This document shows positions 6,557 through 64,000 of a stretch of DNA of 64,000 bases, piece after piece. The stretch is taken from positions 2,071 through 66,070 of the forward strand of contig DAIQOK010000018.1 in NCBI GenBank assembly GCA_036787895.1, in the 5' to 3' direction. Below the pieces are notes generated by a model that worked only from the letters and a program-made list of their open reading frames with translations, did no database searches and was not told the DNA's origin. The position numbers were made by a program, and so were the translations under genes. The stretch comes from Bacteroidota bacterium (lineage in GTDB: Bacteria > Bacteroidota > Bacteroidia > UBA7662). How positions within the stretch are numbered: position 1 is the first letter of the stretch; each line of letters starts with the position of its first letter.

Positions 6557-6557
6557 G

Positions 6558-43422: not shown

Positions 43423-43950
43423 TTATTTTAAAGCCCGGAATGCCTCCCAAAACACCACCCCCGCACACACACTCACATTGAGCGAATGTTTGCTCCCAGC
43501 TTGTGGCACTTCCAAAGCGCCATCGCATAAATCAAGCACCGCATCATCCACGCCCATCACCTCGTTGCCGAGTATAAGTGCGTATTTTTTGTCCTTTTGA
43601 AAGCTAAAATCGGAAAGCAGTACACTTTCGTCGGTTTGTTCGATGGCCAGAAGCGTATAACCTGACTTTTTTAGTTCCTTAAGGCAGTCGGTTGTAGAAG
43701 CAAATTGACGCCATGCCACACTTTCTTCGGCTCCTAAAGCGGCTTTGTGGATGTCGCGATTGGGCGGTGTTCCGGTAAAACCGCAGAGGTACAGGGCCTT
43801 AATCGCAAAAGCATCGGCAGAGCGGAAAATGGCCCCCACATTGGCCAGCGAACGGATGTTGTCGAGCACTGCCACGACGGGTAATTTTTCGCTATTTTTG
43901 AACGCCTCAGCCGTTGGGCGGTTGAGCGCTTCCATTGATAATTTACGCAT
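43423..43950 (-). CDS. TrmH/SpoU family RNA 2'-O-methyltransferase
   Basis: SpoU motifs are present (NVGAIFRSA, LILGNEVMGV, IPQAGSKHSLNVSV). The start is ATG 43950 or 43935. The longer ORF would overlap the mutS start. Confidence 0.8.
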   Translation of the reverse strand: MRKLSMEALNRPTAEAFKNSEKLPVVAVLDNIRSLANVGAIFRSADAFAIKALYLCGFTGTPPNRDIHKAALGAEESVAWRQFASTTDCLKELKKSGYTLLAIEQTDESVLLSDFSFQKDKKYALILGNEVMGVDDAVLDLCDGALEVPQAGSKHSLNVSVCAGVVFWEAFRALK

Positions 43951-43999
43951 AAATACGAACGTTTTGGCCAAATCGACCGACGCAAAGGAAACGCCTTTG

Positions 44000-46733: not shown

Positions 46734-49700
46734 TTGGTCAAGCGGCTTTTTTTTGCTTTGATTTTTGGTCTGTTTGTATTTCTTCAAACACAGGCGCAGG
46801 GTGTCATTAGTCTTGTAAATACAACTTCCTATACGTCCGGAGGAAGTAATGTAACATCCTTTAGCCTTGATATTCCTGCAGCTGTTAGCCAAGGAGATGT
46901 TCTTATTGCCCAGATAGCCTTACGCTCAACAGGAACGGTTAATACGCCAACTGGTTGGACACAGATTTCGAGTGTTAGTGCTACTATCCGGCAGGCAATT
47001 TTTTATCGGGTGGTTGATGGCACAGAAGGTGCATCTCAACTTTTTGATGGCTGGGCTTCGACCCGGGCTGCGGGTATTATGCTAGCTTATCGTAATGTAG
47101 ATATTGGGGATCCGGTTCCCGTATTTTCGACCGCCAACGGTAATTCCGGGACTTTAACAGTAAATGCATTGAGTGCGCCAACCACCAATATGCGGTTGGT
47201 CGTTTTTTACAGTACCCAAGGTGGTACAATCACACCAAATGCCAGTCTTACCTCCAGAAATAGCGCTGCAACCACCGGCAATATTATGAATATTAATGCA
47301 AGTGACGAGGAAATAACGGCTACCGGAAGTACAGGGACTAAGAATGGTACAGCTTCAAGTGCTCGTTTTATTACCCATATGATTGCCCTGCGGCCTATTC
47401 CTACCCAAGGCATCATTGAATATATTGGGAGTACAAACGCCTCAGCAACCGCATTTACAGTATCTCTATCACCACCATCGGGCACACAGCAGGGAGATTT
47501 GATGGTAGTTGGTGTAAATCGACTGAATACCAATAGTATTTCAAATATCTCCGCCAATGGTTGGACTTTGCTTCGTCAGGAATCCAATACTGATGTTCGG
47601 ACAGCCGTTTTTTGGAAATTTGCAGGAGCCAGTGAGGGTGCCAGCACTTTTGGCAATAACAGCGCCTCAGTACGCATGACAGGGGTAATGCTGGTCTACC
47701 GAAATGTCAATAAAAAATCGCCGATAGTAGTTGATAATGGCACTGCATCGAACAGTGCAACAACCACTGTGGGAAGCATAAGCCCCGATGTTAAAGAAAC
47801 CAGGTTACTGGCTTTTTTTACAGGCCGAAGAGCCGCTGATTTTGACTTTTTAAATTATAATGGCATGACCGTCCGGGACAGTATTAAGTTTACAGGCTCG
47901 GGCAACAGATTGGGGATTTTGGCCTTGGACGAATTTTTATCGCCCTCAGGTGCTACCGGAACGCGAGTGAATACCATCACTTCGGCCTCGACGCCATATA
48001 CTGCCGGTATTACATTAAGTTTACGACCTGAAAAGACCTATTTTAGCTATCAAAACGGACTCTGGTCGAATCCTCTTAGCTGGACCAAAGATCCCTCCGG
48101 AACAACCCTGGTACCACTCATTGGTGAAGTCCCCACTCCATATGATAGTGTGGTGATTCTCAACGGCAAAACCATCTCACTTTCAGCTAATGTCGCCACT
48201 ACCAATATTGGCATACGCATCAACAATGGAGGTGTGCTTGATTTACTCACCCATGAATTGCCGACATTGACTGGTTTAACCGGTGTAGGGCGTTTGCGTT
48301 CCAGCCGGACTACTGGTGGCGTGACCTATATGCCCACCGTACTTTACAGCAATAATACCTTGGCGAGTGCCAGTGGTGGCACGCTCGAATATTATTGTGC
48401 GTCGAATATGACCTTAAATACAGGTGTATCAGCCTATTTTAATCTTATTTTGAGAAGGGAAAGTGCAGGAACAACCGTTTATACGCTCGCTTCGAATGTG
48501 ACAGTAACGAACGACCTGACCATAAACCGGGCTTCCTCTGGTGTGAGTAACCTGACTTTCGGCAATGATGGTAGCGCACGAACACTAACGGTAGGCCGTA
48601 ATTTAGCTGTCGAGGCCGGCTGTCAGATTCGTCCACAGAACACCGCAGGTCTGGTGACGCATAATCTATCCATAGGTGGCGATTTTGTCAATAATGGCAG
48701 TGCCCGATTTACCAATCAAACTGCACGCGATTACGAAGCCGCTGCCAATAATCGGGTGATACAGGTCACTTTTACAGGTTCAACCGACAACAAACTGGAC
48801 TGTTTTGGAGAAACAGACTTTTATCGGCTCATTATCGATAAAGGAATAGATCAGACTTATGTACTTACTGTAAATTCAACGGATACTGCCAACTTTCGAT
48901 TGTTTGCTCCGATAAATCAAGCCAATACCGGTGCAGCTGATGATCCAAATCCGGTTGTGAATAAGTCGCTTTACTTGAAAAACGGCACTTTGCGTCTGAA
49001 GTCTAATATCAATTTGCCGTATCTGACTACCGGAGGAAATGACTTTTTTATACCTCAAAATGCTGGTTTGTGGGTGGATGGTGCGACCGTTTACTCTGCA
49101 TTTTCCGGTACAAGTAACCGGGGTTTCACTGTTATTGGAAAACTCAGATTGAGTGCAGGTGAACTGAATAGCGGCCAAAGCGCGGGTTTCGTTTATCGTA
49201 TTGATGGGGTGATTCAGATAGAAGGCGGCACAGCACGGGTTACACAATTTCGTAGATCTACAGCAGGAACCGGATTCAGAGCAGCTTACATTCAAAGTGG
49301 TGGATTATTGATTGTTAGTGCAGATGAAGAGACTAATACTGGCTTTGCTTCTTTTTCCTTGCCAGATGTAGATTGCTCATTTACTATGTCGGGGGGTGAA
49401 ATTCGTATTGGTCGGGCGGTATCTGCATTGGCCGAACGTGGATTCCATCTGGGTATTTCACCTTTAAATGGTAATGTAACAGGAGGCTTGATTCATATTG
49501 AAACGACCAACGCCACTGAATTTCATATTTCCAGCACAATTCCGCTTTTTAATTTACAAATATCCCGGCAAAGCAGTACAGCCAATGTGGTATTGGACCT
49601 GCCTTTGCAAGTTAAAAATAACCTGACCCTCTCGAGTAGCGGAAATCTAAATGCCAATGGTAATAACCTTACGATTGGTGGCAACCTGACCATAAATACG

Positions 49701-52700
49701 GGTACTACCTTGAATAATGGCGCTAATACCCTTAGCTTTAACGGTACTGCAAAACAGCAATTTACAGTTAATGGCAGTTTAGTCAACATCAACGCCTTAA
49801 CCATAGCCAAAGCGAATGATACACTTGAACTAGCTGGTAGTCTTTCGACTTTTGTTGTAGGTGGGGCATTCACTATGAATGCGAATGGAGTCTTAAACGA
49901 CAACGGTAAAACCCTGGAGCTACAAGCTGCTATTACCCATTCAGGTACCCATACAGGTAGTGGTAAAATTCTGTTGACCACCGCGAGCACTAGAAATATA
50001 GGCGGTAACGGACATGGTGTTTTCAGAAATCTTGAACTCAGCGGAAGTGTGGCTTCTACTTATACTACGACAACGAATTTCAGAATTACCGGTAATTTGA
50101 ATTTTGTTGGCGCTCAAAACAGAATATTTGATATAGCCGGTAATAATTTGACTTTTGACACACTGGCTACAGTCACCGGCGCCAATGCGACCGGCCCTGT
50201 TCGGATGATTCGGACCAATGGTAATCAATCGGCACAGGGCGTGACTAAAATTTACAATGCTTTGTCATTTACTTTTCCCGTAGGTACCAATACCGATTAT
50301 AGCCCGGCTACCATCAGCTTCGATATAGCACCAAGTCAGTATGGTAGTATTACATTGCGACCAGTCAATAACGAGCATCCAAACGTTACCGAAAACGGCC
50401 GCAGTCTGACCTATTACTGGCGCGTGGTAGCAACCGGATTTACATTGGGTAGTGCCAAGGTTAGCCATAGCTATTCCTATCCTCAATCGAAAGTGGTTAT
50501 TGCGACAGGCATCACTGAAAATGGCTATGTAAATGCACGTTTTAATCCAACATTGGCGAGTTGGGTTAGCGGAACTTCTGCCAGTATTGATTCGAATAAT
50601 AATATCATCAGTTATAGTGGAGCTGGATTTGAAACCACCATTGGCGGGGATTATACAGCTGGAGATAATAGTCCTGTAGACCCTTTTGGTACAGTAATTA
50701 TTTATTACAGTTATAAAACAGCTGCTCGATGGGACAGCATTGGTAGCTGGTCGACAACCGGCCATACCGGCATTCAAGCCATGCCGGCAGTGATTCCGAA
50801 TGCCAATTCGGTGGTTAGAGTAGGGAATAATCACCAGATTAATGTGATTAGTAATGGTGCAGTGAGCGGGAGTCTTTCCGTAGATTCCGGAGCAGTTATT
50901 GATGTAGGGACGACTACAGGACACAATTTTGGTGCCTTGGTAGGTGAGGGGGTAAGTGGCAAGGGGACCATCCGGATTTCGTCATCAGCTGCCACCGCGG
51001 TTTTCCCATCAGGTGACTTTAATATATTTTTTGGTACAGAGGGGGGGACAGTGGTTTATTATCGCGGTAGTGTCAATTTTACCTTACCTACCACCACTAA
51101 TCAGTACAATATGCTGGTTATCGAACTGAACAGTGGAGGAGCCAGCGATTTTATTGATTTACCTAATCTTGACCTCACCATCCTTAATGATTTTAAGGTT
51201 CAGGGCAGTGCCAGCAGCCGGGCAAGGCTAAATACCAATGCCAATGGAAATCTGACCATCAACCGGGATCTGTTGGTAACCGGTGCTGGATTACGTTTAC
51301 GCCATGCCGGAAGCATGGACCGATCGTTGACAGTATTTGGCAAGCTTGAAATAAGCAGTGGCGCTTCGATCGATAACAGCAGTGAAGCAGATCGGGTACA
51401 CAGTCTTTCGGTTTATGGCAATGTAGTTAACAACGGCACATTAAATCTCTATGCCAACGCCAGCCGACACACGCATTTATACATGCTTGGAGAGGCAAAT
51501 ACTGCCATCACAGGCGCAAATGGCAGTGCCTCTACCAGTATATATTTGTTAACTATCAATAAAGGCAGCAGCAAAACGCCGGTTATGAATTTAGATGTGG
51601 CCGGCACTGTAACTTTTAATGCCAACAACCAATGGTTAAGTTTGCAAAACGGCACTTTCCGGCTGAGCAGGAACTCTACCTTGAATTTGAGCTCTGCTGC
51701 TGCTCAATTTGCCATACCTGAAACAGCTGTTTTTTCGGTCAATAACAGCAGCGCCATTGTAAACATCGGTAACGCTGCAAGCGATACCGCCGATTTGCTG
51801 TTACGAGGTAGATTAGAATTGCTCGATGGTACTATTAATATTGGGAATGTAGCTAATACTAATAATAATGACATTGAAATTGCCAGTGCGGGTATAGCTG
51901 AATTATATGTTTCTGGAGGTACATTGAATGTGAATGGCAGTATTCGTCGGGGACTATCTAATGCAGCGGGCTCCTTATATTTTAAACAAAATGGTGGTGT
52001 AATCAATATCCGGGGACAGGCTGCCTATGGACAAAGAGGAAAACTCGAAGTAATCAATAGCGGAAGTTATTTCGAAATGACCGGCAGTTCGCAAATCAAT
52101 ATTTTACGCGGTGGTTCGGCGTCAAATGCCGATTTCTACGTTCGACCGGATAACGGCTTGGTCACCGGCGGCACGCTAAGCTTTGCCCCGCTTTCTGCGA
52201 TTTCTACCCAGAATTATACGCTCGATGCTTCAGTTCCAATATATAACCTGGCCATTACCGGTTTTAATGGATCGAATCTGGCGAATGTAACCTTGCTGGT
52301 TAACAATTTTACAGTGCTGAATAATATGACCATCAGTGCGAATTCTGCCTTCATTTGCAACGATTTGAATATTAACGTAGGAGCACTGTTTACCCGAGTT
52401 GGTACTTTCACGCCCGGAAATAATACCGTCAGCTTTACTTCGGTAAACGGGGCAACTTCCGGCACATTTACCGGCTCAAATGCCTTTTACAACCTTAAAG
52501 TAAATGCAGCAGCAAGCCTTGATTTGGGGGCCAATGTACTGGTGAATAACAATCTTACGATTGAAACAGGTGCTACACTTGTAAATGGTGATAACCAACT
52601 GGACCTAATTCGTGACCTGACAAACCAAGGAATCCACACCAGTCCGTCGAACAGTGGCACTAATGGTTTACGTTTGATTGGAACCAGTCAACAGCTGATT

Positions 52701-55700
52701 TCCGGTAATGGGACCTTCGGAAATGTAATTGTTAACAATAGTGGTAATATTGAAATCTTAGGTAATATCACCATCAATAATCAGCTAACAATGACAGCGG
52801 GTTTGGTCGATTTGGGCGACCGTATGCTTACCTTGGGGGTCAATGCGACCATTGTTTCGGCCAGTTACAGTACCAGCAGGATGATCCGGACCAATGGTGT
52901 ACTTAGTGATGGAGGTATTAAAAAGTTGTATCCGGCCGGCACACTCGACTTCTTGTTTCCGTTTGGCATCTTGAACAAATACACGCCTGCCAGGGTGAAT
53001 GTAACTGCCAATGGTGCAGTAGGTGAAGTAGTGGCTAAACCGGTAAGCTCCAAACATCCTTCGACCCGAGTTGCGGCCGAAACCCAGTTGAATTATTTTT
53101 GGGAAATTCTAACCACTGGTTTTTCAGGATTAAGCGCAACACTAACTTTCAATTATACCGATGCTGAAGTTACCACCAATGAGTCGAGCTGGCGGGGCGG
53201 ACGTTTTGCATTTCCCAACTGGACACCGATTGGTGGAAGTCCGGGCGTAGTTAATGCGGGTACCAATACCCTCACATTTAGCATTACCGGCACAATCAAT
53301 GGTGGCTATACAGCAGGTTTGGAAGCTGAATTCGCAGCGGTACCTACCCTGTATTCCCGCTCGGCGGTGTGTAGTACGGGTTGTGATTGGAATAACCTGA
53401 ATTCATGGTCGGAAGATGGTCATGATGGTTTAGCGACCAATACCCTTCCCAATGGTCAGCCCATGGTCATTGCTGGAACCGATTCAGTGTATTTTGTCGG
53501 AAATAACTTCGTGGCTGAATCGGTACGGCTTGATTCGGGGTCGATTTTGAATATGCAAGCCACTTTTGGTCATAATTTAGGCGTAGTTAATGGCAAAGGC
53601 AAAATTAAAATCAGTGCTACAGCCAGTAATCTTTTTGTTTTCCCGGGCGGAAATTATACCGCCTTTGCGTCCGATACCGGCGGAACGGTAGAGTTTTTCG
53701 GGAACACTGATGGTACGCTTCCAGCTACTCAGGCCAGTTTTTATAAGTTACTGTTTACCGGAAGCAGCCATCGTACACAAGCCAATATCGATATTTTTGT
53801 CAATGGAGAATGGCGTATGCTTGCAGGAGTTATTGATAATACGCTGAATAATAAAAATATCTCCATCCGGGGTGACTGGATCAATAATGCTTCAACCGGT
53901 GCCTATGTGCCAGGTTCCGGTAAGGTAATGCTAACCAGTAGTCAACCTCAGTCCATCACCGGGAATTTTAGCACTACTTTTGGCAAACTCGAAACCAATG
54001 GCAGCGGCGCAAAAAACTTGGGTCAGCATATTGTAATCAACCAGGAATTGTTGCTGGTAAATGGTCGGTTATATCCGGGCAATTATAACATCGAAATGGA
54101 ATTTGCCGCCACCTCCGGAGGCTCACCGGGGGCGGCTGCCATGGTAGTCCAAAATGGGACTGGCCGGGTACGCAAAAAAATGAATGTAACGGGCAATTTT
54201 ACCTTTCCCATAGGTGAGGAGACGGGTGTAGCTGAATATAGCCCGACAACTGTACATTTCACCACTGGTGCTTTTGCCGGTGGTGCCTATGTGGAAGCTC
54301 AGGTATTTGATAATGTGAGTCCACTTTGTTCAGGAACCAGTAATTACATCAGCCGGTATTGGCAATATAATCATACAGGTATAACCTCATTTACAGTTAC
54401 TGCAAGTGCGCAGTACCTTGCTGCAGATGTGGTGGGGACTGAAGCAGCTATTGTGACTAAAATGAGTCGACCTTCCTTACCCTGTATCGATGGAAACTTG
54501 GTGAATGTCGGGACTAAAACTTTGTCGATTAACTCAGACCTGCTCAATCAACTTTCAGGAGGGGAACCCGCACTTCCGGAACCCACTATTCAAGCCAGTT
54601 TGATGGTCTTCAGTCTGGTAACCGACAGCTCGATGCGGGTTACTGTGAAAAGAGGAAATGGAAGCTCTCGTTTGGTTTTGGCCAAGGCAGGTTCGGCAGT
54701 AGATGCAACACCAATCGATTTTACCTCCTATGCAGCCGACAGTATTTTCGGTGATGGGGCAGAAATTGGCACAGCAAATTATGTGCTTTACGCCGGTACC
54801 GACAGCATTTTTCCAATTTTTGGTCTGAACCAGGAAACAGTTTATCATTTCGCTGTTTTTGAATACAATGGTTCAGGTGCCGAAGCCAATTATTTATTAG
54901 GCACGCCTGCCATCGGCAACCAAACCACCTGGGCAGTTGAGCCCACAGTGCAGGCATCGGCACTTCAATTTACGGTGGTTGGCACTACCACGCTTAATCT
55001 GAAATGGACGACAGGGAACGGTGCCCGACGTTTGGTGTTGGGCAAAGCCAATGCAGCAGTAGATGTAGTTCCTGTAGATGGGGTTGCTTATACTGCCAAT
55101 GCCAGTTTTGGTACTGGTTCGGAGCTAGGCACGGGCAACTTTGTTGTCTTTAGCAGCACCATCGATTCGGTGGTGGTTACCGGCTTGACTATGAATACCA
55201 CCTACCATTTTAAGGTTTTTGAGTTCAACGGTACCGGTGGCGTTCAGAATTATCTCACAACTGCAGCCCCTGCTGCCGATACTTTTACCTCATTGTTGGC
55301 TGCCCTCGAACTCTGGCTTGAAGGCGGCTGGAATGGTGCCGACATGGACGCCAATCTGGTAGATAGTTTGCCTTTAACCCAGCCATACAACCAGGCTCCC
55401 TGGAATTATGCCGGCACCGAATCGGTGGGCAGCATTCCCAATGCCGATGTGGTTGATTGGGTATTGGTTGAACTTCGTGCTGCTGGAACAGCGGCTTCGG
55501 CAACTTCAGCTACTATAAAAACAAGAAGAGCGGCTTTCGTTTTGAAAAACGGGCAGTTAGTTGATTTAGATGGCAGTTCACCGTTATTGCTTCGTCCGAG
55601 CGAAGTAGGGAACTTCTATGCTGTAATTTATCATCGAACCCACATCCCTGCCATGAGTGCAGCACACTTGGTATTTAGCAGCGGGGCATATAGGCATAAC

Positions 55701-55955
55701 TTTAAAACGGCGGCGAGTCAGGCCTATGGCACCCAGGCGTTGGTGGCCTTGGGCGGCGGACAGTTTGGTTTGTATGCCGGCCGTGTAGAGAATAGCACGC
55801 CCTTTACCATCGACAGTCCCGACCGCACCACGGCCTGGGACGACCGCAACAAATTGGGTTATCAGCCTGCCGATGCCACTTTAAAGGGTGCCATTGATGC
55901 CAGCGACCGTTCGGTAATCTGGAACAACCGGGGTAAAGTATCGCAAGTGCCTTAA
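46734..55955 (+). CDS. Giant secreted repeat protein (3073 aa), family not recognised
   Basis: A single uninterrupted ORF with a TTG start. Signal peptide is MVKRLFFALIFGLFVFLQTQAQG. Architecture: two tandem ~200-aa N-terminal modules, two ~885-aa and one ~405-aa Asn/Gly/Thr-rich supermodules, two FN3-like modules, and a ~225-aa C-terminal domain. Confidence 0.9.
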   Translation: MVKRLFFALIFGLFVFLQTQAQGVISLVNTTSYTSGGSNVTSFSLDIPAAVSQGDVLIAQIALRSTGTVNTPTGWTQISSVSATIRQAIFYRVVDGTEGASQLFDGWASTRAAGIMLAYRNVDIGDPVPVFSTANGNSGTLTVNALSAPTTNMRLVVFYSTQGGTITPNASLTSRNSAATTGNIMNINASDEEITATGSTGTKNGTASSARFITHMIALRPIPTQGIIEYIGSTNASATAFTVSLSPPSGTQQGDLMVVGVNRLNTNSISNISANGWTLLRQESNTDVRTAVFWKFAGASEGASTFGNNSASVRMTGVMLVYRNVNKKSPIVVDNGTASNSATTTVGSISPDVKETRLLAFFTGRRAADFDFLNYNGMTVRDSIKFTGSGNRLGILALDEFLSPSGATGTRVNTITSASTPYTAGITLSLRPEKTYFSYQNGLWSNPLSWTKDPSGTTLVPLIGEVPTPYDSVVILNGKTISLSANVATTNIGIRINNGGVLDLLTHELPTLTGLTGVGRLRSSRTTGGVTYMPTVLYSNNTLASASGGTLEYYCASNMTLNTGVSAYFNLILRRESAGTTVYTLASNVTVTNDLTINRASSGVSNLTFGNDGSARTLTVGRNLAVEAGCQIRPQNTAGLVTHNLSIGGDFVNNGSARFTNQTARDYEAAANNRVIQVTFTGSTDNKLDCFGETDFYRLIIDKGIDQTYVLTVNSTDTANFRLFAPINQANTGAADDPNPVVNKSLYLKNGTLRLKSNINLPYLTTGGNDFFIPQNAGLWVDGATVYSAFSGTSNRGFTVIGKLRLSAGELNSGQSAGFVYRIDGVIQIEGGTARVTQFRRSTAGTGFRAAYIQSGGLLIVSADEETNTGFASFSLPDVDCSFTMSGGEIRIGRAVSALAERGFHLGISPLNGNVTGGLIHIETTNATEFHISSTIPLFNLQISRQSSTANVVLDLPLQVKNNLTLSSSGNLNANGNNLTIGGNLTINTGTTLNNGANTLSFNGTAKQQFTVNGSLVNINALTIAKANDTLELAGSLSTFVVGGAFTMNANGVLNDNGKTLELQAAITHSGTHTGSGKILLTTASTRNIGGNGHGVFRNLELSGSVASTYTTTTNFRITGNLNFVGAQNRIFDIAGNNLTFDTLATVTGANATGPVRMIRTNGNQSAQGVTKIYNALSFTFPVGTNTDYSPATISFDIAPSQYGSITLRPVNNEHPNVTENGRSLTYYWRVVATGFTLGSAKVSHSYSYPQSKVVIATGITENGYVNARFNPTLASWVSGTSASIDSNNNIISYSGAGFETTIGGDYTAGDNSPVDPFGTVIIYYSYKTAARWDSIGSWSTTGHTGIQAMPAVIPNANSVVRVGNNHQINVISNGAVSGSLSVDSGAVIDVGTTTGHNFGALVGEGVSGKGTIRISSSAATAVFPSGDFNIFFGTEGGTVVYYRGSVNFTLPTTTNQYNMLVIELNSGGASDFIDLPNLDLTILNDFKVQGSASSRARLNTNANGNLTINRDLLVTGAGLRLRHAGSMDRSLTVFGKLEISSGASIDNSSEADRVHSLSVYGNVVNNGTLNLYANASRHTHLYMLGEANTAITGANGSASTSIYLLTINKGSSKTPVMNLDVAGTVTFNANNQWLSLQNGTFRLSRNSTLNLSSAAAQFAIPETAVFSVNNSSAIVNIGNAASDTADLLLRGRLELLDGTINIGNVANTNNNDIEIASAGIAELYVSGGTLNVNGSIRRGLSNAAGSLYFKQNGGVINIRGQAAYGQRGKLEVINSGSYFEMTGSSQINILRGGSASNADFYVRPDNGLVTGGTLSFAPLSAISTQNYTLDASVPIYNLAITGFNGSNLANVTLLVNNFTVLNNMTISANSAFICNDLNINVGALFTRVGTFTPGNNTVSFTSVNGATSGTFTGSNAFYNLKVNAAASLDLGANVLVNNNLTIETGATLVNGDNQLDLIRDLTNQGIHTSPSNSGTNGLRLIGTSQQLISGNGTFGNVIVNNSGNIEILGNITINNQLTMTAGLVDLGDRMLTLGVNATIVSASYSTSRMIRTNGVLSDGGIKKLYPAGTLDFLFPFGILNKYTPARVNVTANGAVGEVVAKPVSSKHPSTRVAAETQLNYFWEILTTGFSGLSATLTFNYTDAEVTTNESSWRGGRFAFPNWTPIGGSPGVVNAGTNTLTFSITGTINGGYTAGLEAEFAAVPTLYSRSAVCSTGCDWNNLNSWSEDGHDGLATNTLPNGQPMVIAGTDSVYFVGNNFVAESVRLDSGSILNMQATFGHNLGVVNGKGKIKISATASNLFVFPGGNYTAFASDTGGTVEFFGNTDGTLPATQASFYKLLFTGSSHRTQANIDIFVNGEWRMLAGVIDNTLNNKNISIRGDWINNASTGAYVPGSGKVMLTSSQPQSITGNFSTTFGKLETNGSGAKNLGQHIVINQELLLVNGRLYPGNYNIEMEFAATSGGSPGAAAMVVQNGTGRVRKKMNVTGNFTFPIGEETGVAEYSPTTVHFTTGAFAGGAYVEAQVFDNVSPLCSGTSNYISRYWQYNHTGITSFTVTASAQYLAADVVGTEAAIVTKMSRPSLPCIDGNLVNVGTKTLSINSDLLNQLSGGEPALPEPTIQASLMVFSLVTDSSMRVTVKRGNGSSRLVLAKAGSAVDATPIDFTSYAADSIFGDGAEIGTANYVLYAGTDSIFPIFGLNQETVYHFAVFEYNGSGAEANYLLGTPAIGNQTTWAVEPTVQASALQFTVVGTTTLNLKWTTGNGARRLVLGKANAAVDVVPVDGVAYTANASFGTGSELGTGNFVVFSSTIDSVVVTGLTMNTTYHFKVFEFNGTGGVQNYLTTAAPAADTFTSLLAALELWLEGGWNGADMDANLVDSLPLTQPYNQAPWNYAGTESVGSIPNADVVDWVLVELRAAGTAASATSATIKTRRAAFVLKNGQLVDLDGSSPLLLRPSEVGNFYAVIYHRTHIPAMSAAHLVFSSGAYRHNFKTAASQAYGTQALVALGGGQFGLYAGRVENSTPFTIDSPDRTTAWDDRNKLGYQPADATLKGAIDASDRSVIWNNRGKVSQVP
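54915..55277 (+). repeat. 363-bp segment identical to 63638..64000
   Basis: Base-by-base reading shows no mismatch between the two tracts. Sequence immediately 5' of both copies is clearly diverged. Confidence 0.9.
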
Positions 55956-56077
55956 TTTTCCAAAATTCAGTTATCGTCTTATTATTGGATTATTTTCCAA
56001 AAATTAGATTAATTACATTTGTTAGAATGTCTTAAATGCAGCAATTTTACACGGCAAAATTATTGCACGTTTGAAGT

Positions 56078-59000
56078 ATGCGTCGATGTAAGCTCAAGGC
56101 TATCCCTTTATTTTTGTTTTTATTGCCTTGCTCTCTTTTCGGTCAGGGTATCAGTTTTGTAGGTTCGTCAACAGGATTTTCGGCTGTCAGTGTCGCGAAT
56201 TTTAATGTAAATGTTCCTGCCAATGTTCAGTTAAATGATTTTCTAATTGCTACCGTTAGTTGGCGTACAACTGCTGGTACCATAGCCACCCCGGCCGGCT
56301 GGACTTCTGCCTATCAAGTAGATAATAATTCTATTTCGACAGCAGTATTTTATCGATTTGCAAGTGCCAATGAACCGGTATCTTATAATTTTTCCAAGGA
56401 CAATACAACCGCGACAACTGCAGGTATTATTTCAGCTTATCGCGGCGTAAGTTTGAAATCGCCACTTATCAATAATTCCGGGGGAACGGGCAACAATGCA
56501 TCAGTCACTGCTCCAACCCGTACCACAGATGTAGATGAAGCCTGGTTAGTAGCATTTTTTTCGATCAAGGAAGATGTTTCCATTAGCCTGGCCACACCTG
56601 GCGGTATGAACAGGCGCTCGTTTGTACAGGCCACCGCGGCAGCTAATGATATTGCGGTATTGTTAACCGATGAAATTATTCCGGTAGCGGGAGCAACGGG
56701 TACCCGGGTAAGCACGGCAGCCTTGAGTGATCGTTGGGTGGCCTATTCTATAGCTTTAAGGCCTGCTAAAATTTTTTATAGTTACCAGTCCGGCCCCTGG
56801 AGTACGGCCAATTCCTGGACCAAAGATCCTTCAGGTACAACACTCCTGGATCCTGCGGTTCCGACCATCAACGATAGTGTTGTTGTATTGAATGGTCGTG
56901 TAATTACCTTGAGTGCCAGCGTAACCACTGCCAATATCGGTATAACCATTCAGGCCGGGGCGGTATTAGATTTGGTTGGCTTCGATTTGCCGGCCTTGAG
57001 CAGTTTGAACGGTCAAGGTGAGTTAAAAATCAGTAGAAATACTTCACCGGCTTATTTTCCGACTTCTGGTGCCAATGCTTTTAATCAGGCAGGTGGCGGT
57101 ACAGTAAGCTATTATTATACTGGGGGAACTATCGATCTGAATACAGGAATTACAGAGTTTAATAATCTCCGGCTTATTCGGGAAACAAGCGGTTCACAAT
57201 TGTACCGATTGAATCACAATCTGACTTTACATGGGAATTTGATTTTGAGTCGCTCCGGAACAGCGGCTACCGAATTCAGGTTAGGGACTTCTGTTACTGC
57301 AAGGGAATTGGTGATCGGCGGGAATGTCGAAATTGCGCCTAATTGTTCACTTACGGTTCATACTGCCGGAAATCATTCGATAAGTGTAGCCGGGAATTTT
57401 GTTAATAACGGCCAGGTCAGACTAACAAACCAGAGTTCACCTGATTATCTCACCACCTATACCGGTGGATTAGCTACTTTAACCTTTACAGGTGCTTCTA
57501 ACGCCAGCTTTGATTGCAACGGCATTACCGACATTTACCGTTTGGTGCTCAATAAAGGCATTGACCAGACTTTTATGCTCACTGTCAATACCAATAACAG
57601 CGCAAATTTCAGGTTGATGGGCGAAAACGATCAGGGCAATACCCCGGCACAAACCACGACCGACCCGAATCCATTGGTGAATAAGGCACTTTCTTTGCGC
57701 AATGGCACCATTCGGTTCACGAGTAACATCAGTATCCCTAGTCTAACTGAAGGAGGTGATGATTTTTGGATTCCCCTAAATACTTGTCTTTGGGTTGATG
57801 GTGCTGATGTAGCAACAACAACCGTGGCCAATGGAACAGGCTATCAGGCAATCACAATCTCCGGTCGACTTCGTATTAGTTCTGGAACATTTACCACGGC
57901 CAATGCTGCTGGGTTGATCTACATTGGTGATGGTATTATTGACATTGAAGGCGGAACAACTACAGTTTGTCAGATGTGGAATATTGGCACCGGTCGGACG
58001 ACTTTTCGTCAAACAGGTGGATTATGTATTCTCAATGCCATTGGTGAACCCAATGACGGACAGCCGGTTTTTAAATTAGAAAGTGTTGATGCCTCTTTTC
58101 AAATGAGTGGAGGCACTTTGAGAATAGCTAATCCCAGAACAGCCACTTATGGCGGGCTGGATATTAATGTATCTCCCTTGAATGCCAATGTTACAGGAGG
58201 TACAGTAGAGTTCATCACCACTGGCACCAATAATTTTGAGTTTCGTTCAACCGCTCCTTTTTACAATCTAATCATGACGCGAAGTGGAGGCAGTGGCGTA
58301 ATCCAACACCGGGTGAATCCACTGGTTATTTTGAACGACCTATCGATTACATCAAACCAAACCTATCAAGCCAATAATTTTAATTTAACTGTTGGTCGGA
58401 ACTTTACCATTGAGTCAGGTTCAACCTATACACCAGGCAGCAGCACACTTACGTTTAATGGTAGCGGTTTCCAGACCTTTAGTAATAGTGGTACAATAAG
58501 CGGTGGACTAAATCTGCTAACCATTTCTAAAACCGATACCCTGGTTTTGGCCGGTTCTGCAGCCACTTTTCAGGTGAATAATACCTTTAACCTGAATCAA
58601 GGTGTAATTAACGACGGGGGAAAAACGCTTGAATTGCGGTCAAATATCATATTGAATGGAACACATACCGGTTCAGGTAATATACTGATGAATACAGCCA
58701 GCTCACGAACCATTAATGGAAATGGGAATGGTCAGCTGGCTAATGTTAATCTGAGTGGTCCGGCAAACAATACGACCTACACCTTAAATGCAGCACTTAA
58801 GGTAACAGGTGTCTTAAACTTTGTCGCCAGTGGCAGTAATCAGCGCATACTCGACCTGCAGCAACATAATTTGTTGCTGGATACGAATGCTAGCATCAGC
58901 AACAATAATTCCGTTCGTTTTATTCGTACCAATGGTTTTCAATCGGCTGGTGGGTTGACCAAGGTCTACAATAGCAACACTTTTGTTTTCCCGGTAGGAA

Positions 59001-62000
59001 CAGCCACAGATTATACTCCTGCGACCATTGGTTTTAATATCAATCCAACCAGTCGAGGGAGTATAACGGTAAAACCTGTGGCGTTCGAGCATCCGAGTGT
59101 TACAATTACCGGGAGATCCTTAGCGTATTATTGGCGGGTAAGTCAGGCAAATTTTGTGTTGGGCGCGGCAAAGGTCTCTCATGCATATACCTATGTTAAT
59201 GCTGACATAATTACCGGGGCCAATATTACGGAAGATGGCTATGTAGCTGCCCGATTCGATATTGGTAACAATGGCTGGGTGCCGGGCACTGTGGCAGATG
59301 TGGATGATGCCGCGAATCAGATCAATTTTAATACGCCCACTTTTGAATCAACCATTGCAGGCGATTTTACAGCCGGGGATAATTCACCGGATAATCCATT
59401 CGGAACGGTTACCGTATATTATAGCCGTCAAAGTGGTCCCTATAACGATGTGAACACCTGGAGCACGGTTAGCCACTCGGTAAACTCTCCACCTGCATCT
59501 ATTCCCAATGCCAACAGTATCGTGCGAATAGGTGACGGCTCGTCGGCATTTCACACCATTACAGTGAATGCCAATGGTGCGCTTTCAGGTAGTCTGGTCA
59601 TTGGCGGTGGTTCAGTGCTGAATCTTGGTCAGACGACAGGTCATAATTTTGGCGCAATCGAAGGAGAAACAGTTTCCGGAAATGGTCGACTTCGTATCGA
59701 CAGAAATGCAGCTACTTATATTTTTCCAGCCGGTGACTTCGGCACTTTTCTGGATGCTAACGGAGGAGAAGTGGAGTACTACAACAGCACAGCGAACGCC
59801 GTTAACCTGCCTGAGAGCCCTGTTACTTACCGCAATCTAATTCTGAATGCACAATCGACAGGTATCATTACCCTACCAGCCGCTGCATTGCTGATTTACG
59901 ATTCTCTCAAGTGTATTTCTGCTGCCAGTAGACAGGTATATTCTTATAATACAGCTGCCGCAGGAGGCAATATCACTGTTCTGAAAGATTTAGTTGTAGA
60001 TGGCGGCATACTGGAAATCAGAAATACCGGCAATGCGCGAAATTGGCAAATTGGTGGAAACATTCGTGTAGCGGCCAGCGCTATTTTACGTGTTCAATCA
60101 GGAGGAACGAATACAACTCACACTTTTAACGTGAGTAGGAATATCATCAATAATGGAACGTTTGACTTTTTCCAGTCGGCTACCCTCAGCATAAACATCA
60201 ATTTTACGGGAGATTCATTGGCGGCTATTACTGGTACCACCGGAGCTGCCACCACTGAGCTGGCTAATATTACGGTTGATAAAGGAAACAGCTGTGCAAC
60301 AGGACTTACGATTAACGTTGCCGGAAGTTTAACAGCACCTGCCAACAATTGGTTGAACCTGGTGAATGGTTATGTAGATTTTGCCAAATCGGCAACTACA
60401 ATTACCCTAACCAATACTGCCAGTGTATTCGAAATTCCAGCCAGTAGTTGTTTGAAATTGAGTGGTACAAGTTCTACGATTTGGGTGGGGAATGTCGCGA
60501 GCGACGCTGCCGATTTAGCGTTGCGCGGTACACTGGAGATCAGTAACGGCACATTTAACATCGGGAATACCGCTAATAACAATAACAATGATATTGAAAT
60601 TGCACCAGCTGGTAATCCGAAACTATTCGTTACCGGCGGTGTGCTGAATGTCAATGGTCAAATCAGACGCTCACTGGCCAGTACGGCAGGGGCTTTGTTT
60701 TACAGACAAGCGAATGCCAGTACCGTAAATATTTATGGCCGCAATCACAATTCAGCCCGAGGTAAAATTGAGGTAGTTAACAACACTGCCTTTTTTGAAA
60801 TGACAGGTTCTCCTACGCTGAATATTTATCGGGGTGGAGCGGTAACTTTTGCCGATTTGTATGTCCGACCCGATAGCAGTTTTGTGAATGGTGGCACTGT
60901 AAGGTTAAAACCAACAGCTGTGGGCAGCAGTCAGGTTTACCGTTTTGATGTAACCTACAGTTTTTGGAATCTTGAAATCGAAGGCGATGGTGCAAATACA
61001 GCCACTGTCGAATTGACAGTGAACAGCCTGAATGTTAACAATGAACTCCGGTTGCTTACCAACAGTACCCTCAATACCAATGATTTGAATGTAACCATAG
61101 GTGCAAAGTTGGAACGAATTGGAGCTTATAATGCCGGAGCTAATACCACCCGGATCAATGGAAATCCCAGCCAGATTCTGGGTGCCATGACTGGTACTAA
61201 CGCTTTCAACAATTTTATTGTAGGTTCTGCTGCCGCACTCACGCTTCAAACCGCCAGTCCAATTCGGATCAACGGACTCTTTACCATAGAAACAGCCGCT
61301 ACCATTAACGACAATGCCCAGGAAATTGATTGCCGCGGCAATGTGGTGAACAATGGTGCGCACAATAGCCCCAGCAATAGCTCTGTCAATACCCTTACCC
61401 TGGCTGGGACACCCACACAACAAATAAGTGGTAATGGTAGCTTTGGCAATATAGTGGTTAACAATGGTAACAATGTTAATTTTCTAGGTGAATTCACCAT
61501 CAATCGTCGATTGACACTAACCTTGGGTATCGTTGATCTTGGAGATAGAAAATTAACGATTGGCGTCACAGGAGAAGTTACCGGTTCATTCAGTAATGGA
61601 CGTATGATACGCACCAATGGCGTATTGAGTGATGGGGGATTGACCAAAAATTATCCGGGCAGTTCGCATAATTTTTTATTTCCTGTAGGTGTAGGTGCGC
61701 GGTATACACCGGCACGCATTAACCTAACCGCCAACGGAAATGCAGGCACGCTTACGGTTAAACCCATCAATGTTAAACACCCATCAACACGCGATGCCGC
61801 AGAAAAACAATTGAATTTTTATTGGCAGGTAGATAGTACCGGTTTTGGTGGCCCCGTTACAGCAACCCATACCTATCATTATATCAATTCTGATGTTACT
61901 GGTACTGAATCGAGTTATCGTTTCGGTCGTTATGTTTTTCCCAATTGGGTGCCCATCAATGGGGTGGCAGGTACCATTTCCGCGACAGGCGATAGTATTC

Positions 62001-64000
62001 ATAATGTTGGTGTAAACTATCTCACTGGCGGTATGACAGCTGGTGAAACCAGCGAGTTTGCCGCTGTAAGTACCTATTATAGCCGTAACGCTGTTTGCCC
62101 GGGTGGTTGTGATTGGACCAATGCCACCTCCTGGTCGATAGATGGTCATGAGGGTAGTGCCGTAGCTTCACCTCCGGTGGGTGTGCCGGTAATCATAGCA
62201 ACAGCACATACTGTGAATATTACAGCTAATTCACAATTGGCCGAATCTGTTCAGCTTAATGGAACAGCAATTCTTAATTTGAATCAGACTTTTGCACATA
62301 ACCTGGGTTTGGTATCCGGAACCGGCGTTATTCGTATCCGGGCAACCAATAGCGAGCAATTTGTTTTTCCCGGTGGAAACTATACGGCATTTACCTCAGT
62401 GAACGGGGGAACAGTTGAATTTTATAATGCCGGTAATGGCATTTTACCAACCCAGCTGACTTACAACAAAATAATTTTTAAGGATGCTTCTACGCGCACC
62501 CAGGCGAATGTCGATTGGGTAATTAATGGTGATGTAACGATTGAGGCTGGCAGCATTACCAATACATCCTTCAACCGAAATTGGGAAGTGAGGGCCAACT
62601 GGATCAACCAGGTAGGTACGGCAGGTTTTGTCCCTGGTACGGGTACCGTTACCTTTAATTCTGCCTCTGCTCAAACCATTACTGGCGTAACACAATTTTA
62701 CCGCCTGGCCTCGAGCGGTGGCGGCAGTAAAACTTTGTTGAATGAAGTAACGGTGCAGCACCAGTTGGTGCTCAATGCCGGTCGTATTTATTTGGGAAAC
62801 AATAATCTCATCATGGACTCGCTGGCAAATGCCGGCGGCACACCGGCGGTCGGTGCCATGGTTGTACAGAATGGGACTGGTCGAATTCGCAAAAACTTCC
62901 GGGCAACTTCGGGTGGATTTACTTTTCCCTTAGGCGAAGAAACCGATCAGGCGGAATACAGCCCGGTTACTGTAAGTTTTTCCAGTGCCAACTATGCAGG
63001 TGGGGCATATTTATCGGTGCAGGTAATAGATAATCAGAACCCGACCTGCTCAGGCGGAATCCATTTTTTAAGCAGGTATTGGTCTTTCACAACTAGTGGA
63101 ATTACCAGCTACCAAGCCAATGTAACCGGTCAATATACCGATGCAGACATTAATGGGGTAGAAGCCCAAATTTTTGGACGCATGACACGGCCATCCTTGT
63201 CGTGCCTCAATGGGTCGGCGGCTAATATAGCAGCTAATACCATCGGCATAAGTAATTCGTCGGCATTAAACGACTTTTCGGGAGGTGAAGCACCGGTGGC
63301 TAAACCGACAATTTCAGCAACTTTGCTCAGTTTCGAGCAAATTGGTACAACAAGCATGCGACTTAGATGGACCAAAGGAAATGGAGAAAGAAGGTTGGTT
63401 TTAGCTAAAGCAGCCTCGGCTGTAGATGCTTCGCCAGTGGATGAGGTAGCCTATACAGCCGATAGTGTTTTTGCTCAGGGAAGTCAGCTTGGAACGGGTA
63501 ATTATGTGATTTACGGCAGTACTGATAGCACAGTTTTGCTTACTGGTCTGAACTCGGAAACCAATTATCATTTTGCAGTTTTTGAATATGCAAACAGTGG
63601 CATTGAATCGGCTTATCGTACTGTTTCTCCCGCTTTAGGCAACCAAACCACCTGGGCAGTTGAGCCCACAGTGCAGGCATCGGCACTTCAATTTACGGTG
63701 GTTGGCACTACCACGCTTAATCTGAAATGGACGACAGGGAACGGTGCCCGACGTTTGGTGTTGGGCAAAGCCAATGCAGCAGTAGATGTAGTTCCTGTAG
63801 ATGGGGTTGCTTATACTGCCAATGCCAGTTTTGGTACTGGTTCGGAGCTAGGCACGGGCAACTTTGTTGTCTTTAGCAGCACCATCGATTCGGTGGTGGT
63901 TACCGGCTTGACTATGAATACCACCTACCATTTTAAGGTTTTTGAGTTCAACGGTACCGGTGGCGTTCAGAATTATCTCACAACTGCAGCCCCTGCTGCC
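56078..64000 (+). CDS. Second giant secreted repeat protein, paralog of 46734..55955, 3'-truncated by the window edge (at least 2641 codons)
   Basis: It is not in the ORF track. ATG 56078 is followed by signal peptide MRRCKLKAIPLFLFLLPCSLFGQG. Frame 2 gives exactly 2641 codons to position 64000. The track lists no frame-2 plus-strand ORF fragments in this span, which fits one open frame. The protein is collinear with gene 1 but has a single N-terminal module. Confidence 0.85.
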   Translation, partial: MRRCKLKAIPLFLFLLPCSLFGQGISFVGSSTGFSAVSVANFNVNVPANVQLNDFLIATVSWRTTAGTIATPAGWTSAYQVDNNSISTAVFYRFASANEPVSYNFSKDNTTATTAGIISAYRGVSLKSPLINNSGGTGNNASVTAPTRTTDVDEAWLVAFFSIKEDVSISLATPGGMNRRSFVQATAAANDIAVLLTDEIIPVAGATGTRVSTAALSDRWVAYSIALRPAKIFYSYQSGPWSTANSWTKDPSGTTLLDPAVPTINDSVVVLNGRVITLSASVTTANIGITIQAGAVLDLVGFDLPALSSLNGQGELKISRNTSPAYFPTSGANAFNQAGGGTVSYYYTGGTIDLNTGITEFNNLRLIRETSGSQLYRLNHNLTLHGNLILSRSGTAATEFRLGTSVTARELVIGGNVEIAPNCSLTVHTAGNHSISVAGNFVNNGQVRLTNQSSPDYLTTYTGGLATLTFTGASNASFDCNGITDIYRLVLNKGIDQTFMLTVNTNNSANFRLMGENDQGNTPAQTTTDPNPLVNKALSLRNGTIRFTSNISIPSLTEGGDDFWIPLNTCLWVDGADVATTTVANGTGYQAITISGRLRISSGTFTTANAAGLIYIGDGIIDIEGGTTTVCQMWNIGTGRTTFRQTGGLCILNAIGEPNDGQPVFKLESVDASFQMSGGTLRIANPRTATYGGLDINVSPLNANVTGGTVEFITTGTNNFEFRSTAPFYNLIMTRSGGSGVIQHRVNPLVILNDLSITSNQTYQANNFNLTVGRNFTIESGSTYTPGSSTLTFNGSGFQTFSNSGTISGGLNLLTISKTDTLVLAGSAATFQVNNTFNLNQGVINDGGKTLELRSNIILNGTHTGSGNILMNTASSRTINGNGNGQLANVNLSGPANNTTYTLNAALKVTGVLNFVASGSNQRILDLQQHNLLLDTNASISNNNSVRFIRTNGFQSAGGLTKVYNSNTFVFPVGTATDYTPATIGFNINPTSRGSITVKPVAFEHPSVTITGRSLAYYWRVSQANFVLGAAKVSHAYTYVNADIITGANITEDGYVAARFDIGNNGWVPGTVADVDDAANQINFNTPTFESTIAGDFTAGDNSPDNPFGTVTVYYSRQSGPYNDVNTWSTVSHSVNSPPASIPNANSIVRIGDGSSAFHTITVNANGALSGSLVIGGGSVLNLGQTTGHNFGAIEGETVSGNGRLRIDRNAATYIFPAGDFGTFLDANGGEVEYYNSTANAVNLPESPVTYRNLILNAQSTGIITLPAAALLIYDSLKCISAASRQVYSYNTAAAGGNITVLKDLVVDGGILEIRNTGNARNWQIGGNIRVAASAILRVQSGGTNTTHTFNVSRNIINNGTFDFFQSATLSININFTGDSLAAITGTTGAATTELANITVDKGNSCATGLTINVAGSLTAPANNWLNLVNGYVDFAKSATTITLTNTASVFEIPASSCLKLSGTSSTIWVGNVASDAADLALRGTLEISNGTFNIGNTANNNNNDIEIAPAGNPKLFVTGGVLNVNGQIRRSLASTAGALFYRQANASTVNIYGRNHNSARGKIEVVNNTAFFEMTGSPTLNIYRGGAVTFADLYVRPDSSFVNGGTVRLKPTAVGSSQVYRFDVTYSFWNLEIEGDGANTATVELTVNSLNVNNELRLLTNSTLNTNDLNVTIGAKLERIGAYNAGANTTRINGNPSQILGAMTGTNAFNNFIVGSAAALTLQTASPIRINGLFTIETAATINDNAQEIDCRGNVVNNGAHNSPSNSSVNTLTLAGTPTQQISGNGSFGNIVVNNGNNVNFLGEFTINRRLTLTLGIVDLGDRKLTIGVTGEVTGSFSNGRMIRTNGVLSDGGLTKNYPGSSHNFLFPVGVGARYTPARINLTANGNAGTLTVKPINVKHPSTRDAAEKQLNFYWQVDSTGFGGPVTATHTYHYINSDVTGTESSYRFGRYVFPNWVPINGVAGTISATGDSIHNVGVNYLTGGMTAGETSEFAAVSTYYSRNAVCPGGCDWTNATSWSIDGHEGSAVASPPVGVPVIIATAHTVNITANSQLAESVQLNGTAILNLNQTFAHNLGLVSGTGVIRIRATNSEQFVFPGGNYTAFTSVNGGTVEFYNAGNGILPTQLTYNKIIFKDASTRTQANVDWVINGDVTIEAGSITNTSFNRNWEVRANWINQVGTAGFVPGTGTVTFNSASAQTITGVTQFYRLASSGGGSKTLLNEVTVQHQLVLNAGRIYLGNNNLIMDSLANAGGTPAVGAMVVQNGTGRIRKNFRATSGGFTFPLGEETDQAEYSPVTVSFSSANYAGGAYLSVQVIDNQNPTCSGGIHFLSRYWSFTTSGITSYQANVTGQYTDADINGVEAQIFGRMTRPSLSCLNGSAANIAANTIGISNSSALNDFSGGEAPVAKPTISATLLSFEQIGTTSMRLRWTKGNGERRLVLAKAASAVDASPVDEVAYTADSVFAQGSQLGTGNYVIYGSTDSTVLLTGLNSETNYHFAVFEYANSGIESAYRTVSPALGNQTTWAVEPTVQASALQFTVVGTTTLNLKWTTGNGARRLVLGKANAAVDVVPVDGVAYTANASFGTGSELGTGNFVVFSSTIDSVVVTGLTMNTTYHFKVFEFNGTGGVQNYLTTAAPAA
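63638..64000 (+). repeat. 363-bp segment identical to 54915..55277 (continues past the window end)
   Basis: See the partner feature. The offset is 8723 nt and keeps both copies in their reading frames. Confidence 0.9.

Follow-up and report, generated by a model that had tools for sequence, protein, structure and literature searches.

Two giant genes in tandem

The DNA analyzed here (the window) is a 64,000-nucleotide (nt) stretch of contig DAIQOK010000018.1 from an uncultured Bacteroidota bacterium. Two very large genes on its forward strand, termed gene 1 and gene 2, lie in tandem at its 3′ end and encode giant, predicted secreted proteins with the same module order. The list of open reading frames (ORFs) and the translation confirmed gene 1 at 46734..55955 with 3073 amino acids (aa), as given in the initial annotation of this DNA. 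The second gene, which that annotation had placed at the ATG at position 56078, indeed continues for 2641 codons up to the end of the window, beyond which its C-terminus lies; neither a stop codon nor a frameshift was seen in frame 2 between 56078 and 64000. The ORF track lacks gene 2, as had been remarked, since the list leaves out ORFs running past the window end. The reported gap of 122 nt between both genes is also correct.

BLASTP aligns the two proteins in one segment (gene 1 residues 228-2847 with gene 2 residues 25-2640, 48% identity), and the proposed common module order holds. Gene 1 and gene 2 are collinear paralogues. From the N-terminus each protein comprises a signal peptide, one or two N-terminal modules (N-modules), three supermodules (SM1 to SM3) and a pair of domains resembling fibronectin type III (FN3-like), after which gene 1 closes with a C-terminal domain (CTD). 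The features are as follows, with expectation values given as E and HMM standing for hidden Markov model:

Gene 1: 46734..55955, + strand, 3073 aa, TTG start, stop codon 55953-55955 (ORF list and translation)
Gene 1 signal peptide: 46734..46799, + strand, aa 1-22 (read from the sequence)
Gene 1 N-modules 1 and 2: 46800..48032, + strand, aa 23-222 and 226-433 (HMM, 5e-94 and 1e-97)
Gene 1 SM1: 48033..50699, + strand, aa 434-1322 (phmmer with gene 2 SM1, E 5e-228)
Gene 1 SM2: 50700..53324, + strand, aa 1323-2197 (E 4e-40 to SM1, 4e-207 to gene 2 SM2)
Gene 1 SM3: 53325..54578, + strand, aa 2198-2615 (E 1e-123 to gene 2 SM3)
Gene 1 FN3-like pair: 54579..55277, + strand, aa 2616-2848 (weak fn3 and Pur_ac_phosph_N, aa 2743-2836)
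Gene 1 CTD: 55278..55952, + strand, aa 2849-3073, 225 aa
Intergenic spacer: 55956..56077, + strand, 122 nt, 74% A+T
Gene 2: 56078..64000, + strand, first 2641 codons from the ATG, open to the window end (translation)
Gene 2 signal peptide: 56078..56143, + strand, aa 1-22 (read from the sequence)
Gene 2 N-module: 56144..56767, + strand, aa 23-230
Gene 2 SM1: 56768..59422, + strand, aa 231-1115 (query of the exhaustive family search)
Gene 2 SM2: 59423..62047, + strand, aa 1116-1990 (E 9e-42 to SM1)
Gene 2 SM3: 62048..63301, + strand, aa 1991-2408 (AlphaFold2 model)
Gene 2 FN3-like pair: 63302..64000, + strand, aa 2409-2641, ending at the window end (Pfam fn3)
Identical tract: 63638..64000 in gene 2, equal to 54915-55277 in gene 1, + strand, 363 nt, reaching the window end

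The TTG start of gene 1 aligns with the ATG of an equally long orthologue (P0159, 3073 aa, 86% identical), which is encoded on a Logan contig (locus L012) and likewise adjoins mutS. Gene 1 is under purifying selection. Compared with P0159 the rate of nonsynonymous substitution (dN) is 0.09 while that of synonymous substitution (dS) is saturated, and dN/dS stays below 0.14 in each module with an estimable dS; from these values we conclude that gene 1 and gene 2 are genuine genes. The N-modules are the fastest-diverging parts of gene 1 (74.5% and 60.9% identity to P0159), followed by the FN3-like pair with 80-83% and by the supermodules and the CTD with 88-95%.

Both N-termini read as Sec-type signal peptides, in agreement with the claim that each protein has its own. 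In gene 1 the peptide MVKRLFFALIFGLFVFLQTQA followed by QG has a basic n-region, a hydrophobic core, Ala at position -1 and Gln at +1, and cleavage probably takes place between TQA and QG. The signal peptide of gene 2 (MRRCKLKAIPLFLFLLPCSLFG, followed by QG) also has Gln at +1, and the Cys in its sequence LLPC makes a poor lipobox.

The supermodule defines a large family of giant proteins

The three supermodules within each protein are homologous to one another, with an E of about 1e-41 between SM1 and SM2 and with SM3 as a shortened copy. SM1 of gene 1 starts with the head YFSYQNGLWS..WTKDPSGTT, continues as a long predicted beta-solenoid and is completed by a beta-sandwich with the motif IRTNG..FPVG..YSPA..YYW. 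SM3 of gene 1, whose sandwich reads VQNG..FPIG..YSP, corresponds to the head and the tail of SM2. The two sequence signatures pointed out in the initial annotation were both recovered: the head motif occurs in each protein (YFSYQNGLWSNPLSWTKDPSGTT and FYSYQSGPWSTANSWTKDPSGTT), and the recurring terminal domain IRTNG..FP[VF]G..Y[ST]PA is found at residues 1159 and 2051 of gene 1 and 949 and 1844 of gene 2, with the variant VQNG..FP[IL]G..YSP at residue 2472 of gene 1 and 2263 of gene 2. There are no DNA tandem repeats in the region, and the internal repeats of the proteins must therefore be ancient.

An AlphaFold2 model of SM3 of gene 2, calculated from a 13-sequence alignment (A3), reached a predicted local distance difference test (pLDDT) of 94.6 and a predicted template modelling score (pTM) of 0.90. 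In this model about 300 residues of short periodic strands, a beta-solenoid, precede a beta-sandwich of long strands. The model thus agrees with the suggestion that the Asn/Gly/Thr-rich stretches would fold as beta-solenoids.

FN3-like modules had also been proposed and are present in both proteins, although the Pfam fn3 match (PF00041, cut-off 25 bits) is weak. It scores 27.2 bits in gene 2 and 17 bits in gene 1, even though both genes have the same sequence in the matched domain. This weak fn3 hit is the sole match of either gene to Pfam and NCBIfam, and a sequence search of the PDB with gene 1 gave noise only. The modules could thus be assigned to no named family, as had been stated, and no full-length match to a characterized family was obtained.

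We searched exhaustively with phmmer, using SM1 of gene 2 as query, through 1.84 billion representatives of clusters at 50% identity. The supermodule was found in 894 clusters at E<=1e-3 and in 553 at E<=1e-30; a word-index search had given few relatives. Most of the proteins in the 894 clusters have 2000-5500 aa. The 150 best hits are proteins of 830-5493 aa (median about 3200) with 1-8 matched stretches each. As the unit of the family we define a beta-solenoid which is preceded by a Y-[YF]-S-x..W..W[ST] head and followed by a beta-sandwich with the motif IRTNG..FPxG..Y[ST]P..[YF][YF]W; a member has one or more such units, and gene 1 and gene 2 have three each. The public names of the relatives are "hypothetical", "PKD domain-containing" or the automatic JGI name "fibronectin-binding autotransporter adhesin", and our literature search found no description of the family. 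The two genes had been presented as the best candidate for an undescribed cell-surface system. They do not stand isolated, since the supermodule defines a large uncharacterized family.

For the 150 best hits we clustered the C-terminal ends and verified the tails on sampled members. Seventy of the 150 proteins fall into a cluster whose sampled members match TIGR04183, the type A domain of the T9SS (type IX secretion system), and six into a cluster matching TIGR04131 (T9SS type B). Based on these 76 proteins we regard the supermodule family as consisting mostly of giants which are exported by the T9SS across the outer membrane. At the place where the others bear a T9SS tail, the CTD of gene 1 is present in seven proteins including gene 1 itself. 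A further cluster has 33 members, most of which share a conserved P-x-T-G-P-x-Y-H-[IV]-x-N motif at their end, and for this motif there is no NCBIfam model. The complete end in this cluster (P0171, P0179, P0184 and about 30 others) is [RK]-x-P-x-T-G-P-x-Y-H-[IV]-x-N-x(2-4)-COOH, and this may be another unrecognized C-terminal signal. The remaining ends belong to truncated proteins.

The C-terminal domain of gene 1

The CTD of gene 1, which is matched by no Pfam or NCBIfam model, consists of a beta-sandwich part with the motif LEGG..QPYN..PWNY.GTESV..VDWVLVELR..HRTH and of a degenerate two-repeat dockerin-like segment, and it ends with ..SQVP-COOH. With the word-index search we collected 131 homologues, mostly of 200-390 aa, from genomes of Bacteroidales, Ignavibacteria, Calditrichia and Cytophagia. 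Their alignment (A2) has the consensus LEGPY..M.T.LN..LP..QPYN..PWNY.GTESV..VDWVLVELR..HRNHL, followed by two D.N.DG....D repeats and the terminal QVP. In 83 of the 93 complete homologues the protein ends 0-2 residues past QVP, and the domain therefore behaves as an address label.

Type I dockerins are built from two repeats of about 22 aa with Ca2+-binding D-x-N-x-D-G..D loops. The A2 profile matches dockerins in the PDB (best 2vn5_B, E 1.2e-3), Pfam Dockerin_1 (PF00404) is found on a few of the homologues, and many members of the CTD family carry a true cohesin at their N-terminus (A5 against PDB cohesins, E 1.4e-6). Proteins of about 380 aa with a signal peptide, a true cohesin and a CTD of the gene 1 type are widespread in metagenome-assembled genomes (MAGs) of the Bacteroidales type (P0023, P0024, P0026, P0027, P0031, P0033, P0078, P0079, P0082, P0084, and further P0088, P0099, P0103 and P0106). 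Since a single chain here unites a cohesin with a dockerin-like domain, these proteins might assemble themselves into chains on the surface.

As known T9SS signals we considered and rejected two candidates. The CTD is not a type A tail, with a probability of 0.2% in hhalign against the type A tails of the family and without a match to TIGR04183 or PF18962. Gene 1 as a T9SS type B or SprB-like cargo was likewise set aside, as neither TIGR04131 nor PF13585 nor the SprB repeat matched. The CTD might nevertheless be a fourth class of T9SS signal with no working dockerin, in which case the giants would be ordinary T9SS cargo, released or attached by the T9SS, and would have no cohesin-like partner. 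It occupies the site of the type A and B tails of the relatives, it is strictly terminal with a conserved end motif, all named homologues come from the Fibrobacteres-Chlorobi-Bacteroidetes (FCB) group (Bacteroidales, Ignavibacterium, Calditrichia and Roseivirga), and gene 1 has degenerate Ca2+ ligands. A precedent also exists in the type C CTD (cl41395), the C-terminal ~100 aa of the ChiA type, which lies outside types A and B (PMC10202324). Against this stand the lacking similarity to type A and to the type A and B models, the length of 225 aa with a helical dockerin-like end, which is unlike the beta-sandwich CTDs of about 80 aa, and the pairing of the CTD with a true cohesin in many family members, suggesting protein-protein docking. 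We therefore consider a fourth signal class unlikely.

The loci most closely related to the one described here, L001 (UBA7662) and L012, each contain mutS, one giant, an FN3-array protein of 1471 or 1745 aa, a protein of 830-860 aa and proteins with a T9SS type A tail, in this order. The FN3-like unit of the gene 1 pair fills, as arrays, the gene next to the giant in both loci, and the giant and the next two proteins share one CTD at their ends. In two further unrelated loci a CTD-bearing gene again precedes a gene with a type A tail; the type A-tailed gene directly follows the QVP-CTD gene at L012 25996-27141, L001 20364-21530, L093 9213-11408 and L096 8834-9937, which represent three unrelated contexts. 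The type A-tailed proteins share an N-terminal domain (A4) of about 170 aa with a cohesin-like strand pattern, and homology to cohesins is undetectable (hhalign about 1%). A4 as a cohesin is unsupported rather than disproved: the PDB profile search and Pfam gave nothing and the hhalign probabilities were 0.3-1.5%.

On a more speculative level, the CTD could be an unrecognized surface-targeting label of diderm bacteria of the FCB group, which replaces the T9SS CTD and docks the giants in cohesin-dockerin style onto T9SS-anchored partners encoded downstream. We hold this specific arrangement to be doubtful; if true, it would establish a cellulosome-like assembly principle on the outer membrane of Bacteroidota.

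The N-modules resemble a domain of phage tail proteins

An N-terminal module of about 200 aa ending in LRP had been noticed in both proteins. This part of the description stands, while the number of copies differs, there being two in gene 1 and one in gene 2. The modules are predicted to be all-beta, and each terminates with ...LRP. An AlphaFold2 model of the gene 2 module (pLDDT 94.5) is all-beta with 12 strands. When this model was compared with BFVD by Foldseek, 89 matches at E<=1e-3 were obtained (best E 1e-14, template modelling (TM) scores 0.7-0.89), comprising mycobacteriophage "minor tail proteins" and many uncharacterized proteins of Caudovirales, and one match annotated as a phosphodiesterase. 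In an alignment of 22 instances of the module (A1), PHROG 13624 matches 14 (best E 1e-10) and PHROG 3329 matches eight (best E 8e-10). By profile as well as by shared fold the N-module thus belongs to a beta-sandwich domain of phage tail proteins. It differs from these phage domains, which are themselves uncharacterized, in that it sits in a cellular surface protein and has no match at the BLAST level, as tblastn against 50,697 phage genomes found none.

The instances in A1 come from both genes, from MshQ-like proteins, from Longispora dehydrogenases dependent on pyrroloquinoline quinone (PQQ) and from proteins with LamG or He_PIG domains. The module is also found in extracellular multidomain proteins beside LamG, He_PIG, MshQ-like and Ig domains. 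As a mobile extracellular unit it reaches well beyond Bacteroidota. The set P0002, P0007, P0008, P0010, P0011, P0005 and P0006 comprises MshQ-like proteins, in which it forms tandem arrays of 2-4 copies next to DUF6701, one protein to which Pfam assigns YD-shell and Big_7 domains, and the Longispora PQQ-dependent sugar dehydrogenases, which bear it C-terminally.

A1 has only four invariant residues (P, D, W and L), which favours binding over catalysis. By analogy the module may bind a ligand on a surface, a particle or another cell, probably a glycan.

It could be argued instead that the products work as enzymes outside the cell. The beta-helices would then cleave polysaccharides as lyases or hydrolases, as in pectate lyases or phage tailspikes, and would be fed by the N-module as a hydrolase or carbohydrate-binding domain. 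Many right-handed beta-helices do cleave glycans, tailspikes are among the weak Foldseek neighbours of the supermodule model, PHROG 13624 is labelled "hydrolase", and there is the phosphodiesterase annotation of one BFVD match. However, a 715-aa segment of the solenoid matched none of the Pfam Beta_helix, pectate-lyase, glycoside hydrolase or polysaccharide lyase models even at relaxed thresholds (E<=10), and the four invariant residues of the N-module do not amount to a conserved catalytic set. Moreover, of the 651 positions in the PHROG profile the N-module covers just 17-205, so that the "hydrolase" label probably stems from another domain, and three tandem rods with spacers are a typical fibre architecture. 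We therefore regard an enzymatic function as improbable.

Origin of the tandem pair

The last 363 nt of gene 2 within the window are identical to the corresponding part of gene 1. Upstream of this tract the two genes are about 65% identical, and the boundary is sharp. Correspondingly, the second domain of the FN3-like pair (FN3b) has 100% protein identity between the genes, with 35-57% in every other module. The sharp upstream boundary of an identical run of at least 363 nt argues for a recent gene conversion. The best explanation for the relationship is that gene 1 and gene 2 are ancient paralogues which have been partly homogenized by gene conversion. If the homology continues, gene 2 would have the same CTD and come to its end near 64678.

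The tandem arrangement itself is not conserved. A survey of related genomes had been suggested on this point, and both closest loci carry a single giant after mutS. The giant of L001 is of the gene 2 type (61% identical to gene 2, 49% to gene 1), while that of L012, P0159, is of the gene 1 type. The tandem pair is thus specific to this genome. Either both old paralogues could have been retained here or one could have been acquired.

An identical stretch running right up to the window end, together with single giants at both closest loci, might also indicate a collapsed or chimeric join in the assembly at a locus which truly holds a single gene. But the two genes are joined by an ordinary AT-rich spacer of 122 nt, after which come a start codon and a signal peptide, and this join lies far from the repeat. 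Collapse cannot have produced two genes which are only 35-57% identical elsewhere and which have separate closest orthologues (P0159 with 86% for gene 1, the L001 giant with 61% for gene 2, which itself is 48% identical to gene 1). In addition, repeated 3′ ends would interrupt the contig and not fuse the stop of gene 1 to the start of gene 2. We consider an assembly artefact very improbable.

Proposed function of the giant proteins

Taking the sequence analyses and the models together, we propose with a probability of roughly 0.6 that the products of gene 1 and gene 2 are long, rigid, fibre-like and adhesin-like proteins of the cell surface in which the CTD replaces the T9SS tag. Judging from its signal peptide, each protein would be exported by Sec. 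Most of the chain would then form three successive beta-solenoid rods, each capped by a beta-sandwich, as modelled for SM3 and extended to the others by homology. After the rods follow two FN3-like spacers and the C-terminal address domain. The rod would keep the one or two N-terminal beta-sandwich modules, with their fold known from phage tails and their presumed ligand binding, at a distance from the cell. At the other end the relatives mostly have a T9SS type A or B domain, in place of which this lineage would use the 225-aa CTD ending with QVP. We infer that the CTD is a targeting and attachment label by which the fibre would be docked to a partner on the surface, and passage across the outer membrane may be signalled by it too. 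Gene structure, modular homology, folds, family size, the C-terminal tags of the relatives and purifying selection are results of the analysis; surface location, adhesion, docking partner and export route are part of the proposal.

Of the roles which the initial annotation had left open, an adhesin-like role at the cell surface is the best inference. For a gliding role we found no SprB repeat, type B CTD or sprF-like neighbour in the window, and nothing points to an S-layer.

Several observations weigh against our proposal. A PDB search by Foldseek with the SM3 model gave nothing significant (E 0.1 or worse). The weak neighbours are all beta-helices (Ag43, Candida Awp adhesins, TibA, MpAFP and tailspikes), and the structural analogy of the model to adhesins therefore holds at the level of the fold class. 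The N-module model also has no significant neighbour in the PDB, the best TM score being about 0.25, and its presumed ligand binding is an analogy, for a domain whose PHROG carries a hydrolase label. As to the CTD of gene 1, there is no match to Pfam Dockerin_1 even at E<=10, its Ca2+ loops are degenerate, reading VENSTP and DATLKG instead of DxNxDG, the cluster yielded no cohesin, and A4 is not detectably one. Finally, gene 1 carries no recognized signal for outer-membrane export among T9SS types A and B.

The closest known counterparts are giant T9SS surface proteins of Bacteroidota, such as SprB and RemA of Flavobacterium johnsoniae and the numerous hypothetical giants named "T9SS type A/B sorting domain-containing". 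They resemble the proteins described here in phylum, in the Sec signal, in a rod which is repetitive and rich in beta-structure and in their length of thousands of residues, and supermodule relatives of gene 1 and gene 2 bear verified TIGR04183 or TIGR04131 tails. Unlike these giants, gene 1 has no type A or B CTD, no SprB repeat according to Pfam and no sprF/porP-like neighbour in the window.

A predicted beta-solenoid rod as stalk is shared with beta-helical adhesins such as Antigen 43, TibA, FHA, the MpIBP/MpAFP repeats-in-toxin (RTX) adhesin and Candida Awp. Antigen 43 and TibA are type Va autotransporters, and FHA uses two-partner secretion (TPS). In contrast to these systems, Pfam finds neither an autotransporter barrel nor a TPS domain nor RTX repeats in gene 1 and gene 2, and each of their rods ends in a family-specific beta-sandwich.

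With cohesin-dockerin assemblies (type I dockerin of the cellulosome, PF00404) the CTD family has in common a duplicated D.N.DG....D segment in its last ~60 residues and the true cohesin which many members also bear. The differences are the diderm host, the fusion of the dockerin-like part to an upstream beta-sandwich and a terminal QVP, the degenerate Ca2+ ligands in gene 1, and a gene cluster in which no cohesin was found.

Genomic surroundings

The neighbouring genes in the window are housekeeping genes, among them pnp, an rpoD-like gene, prfC, a gene for an outer-membrane protein resembling TonB-dependent receptors, a SpoU methylase gene, mutS, lon and lepB. The G+C content of gene 1 (46.0%) and gene 2 (45.7%) equals that of the rest of the window (46.5%). 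Given this composition and the housekeeping neighbours, horizontal transfer was set aside. The best genome matches of RF3 are freshwater Bacteroidota MAGs with 73% identity, and the closest matching contigs in the genome and metagenome collections scanned are 66-80% identical. No tRNAs and no Rfam families were detected in the region.

In the intergenic spacer there is one promoter motif of the Bacteroidota -7 type (TACATTTG, 56014-56021), 57 nt before the ATG of gene 2. It is a consensus match only, and the motif is found 0.6 times per kb on the same strand. The scans for sigma-70 promoters (27 sites, against 18.1 +/- 4.3 in shuffled sequence) and for terminators (14 terminator-like sites, against 10.7 +/- 3.2 in shuffled sequence) were not informative.

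The listed mutS ORF (43745-46573, + strand) has 942 aa from a TTG start and overlaps on the opposite strand with the gene for the SpoU methylase (43423-44022, - strand). As the mutS orthologue has 891 aa, the true start probably lies further downstream. Outer-membrane proteins with CarboxypepD_reg and Plug domains are encoded at 40467-43328 and 1031-3448 (both + strand), with no link to the giants shown; the former keeps its place between prfC and mutS in L012. The gene at 15099-15998 (+ strand) codes for a MerR-family regulator with a B12-binding domain, an architecture of light-responsive regulators of the CarH/LitR type. Five ORFs of 153-313 aa, all on the - strand, have no Pfam match (4272-4733, 5771-6577, 13401-13937, 16483-17193 and 30906-31847).

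Significance for the Bacteroidota cell surface

For Bacteroidota, contact with particles, hosts and other cells is largely a matter of surface display, and most of their largest genes are unannotated. The locus described here provides a clean, high-confidence anatomy of a large unnamed family of giants with at least 894 clusters, and the supermodule of solenoid plus sandwich could be converted directly into a domain model. It further brings to light two modules outside the curated libraries, namely a tip domain shared with phage tails and a dockerin-like terminal domain which stands in place of the T9SS tag. If the CTD is a docking or export label, this would be a new route for building the cell surface of Bacteroidota, and over 130 small proteins with no assigned role which bear a cohesin or the CTD would be explained as well.

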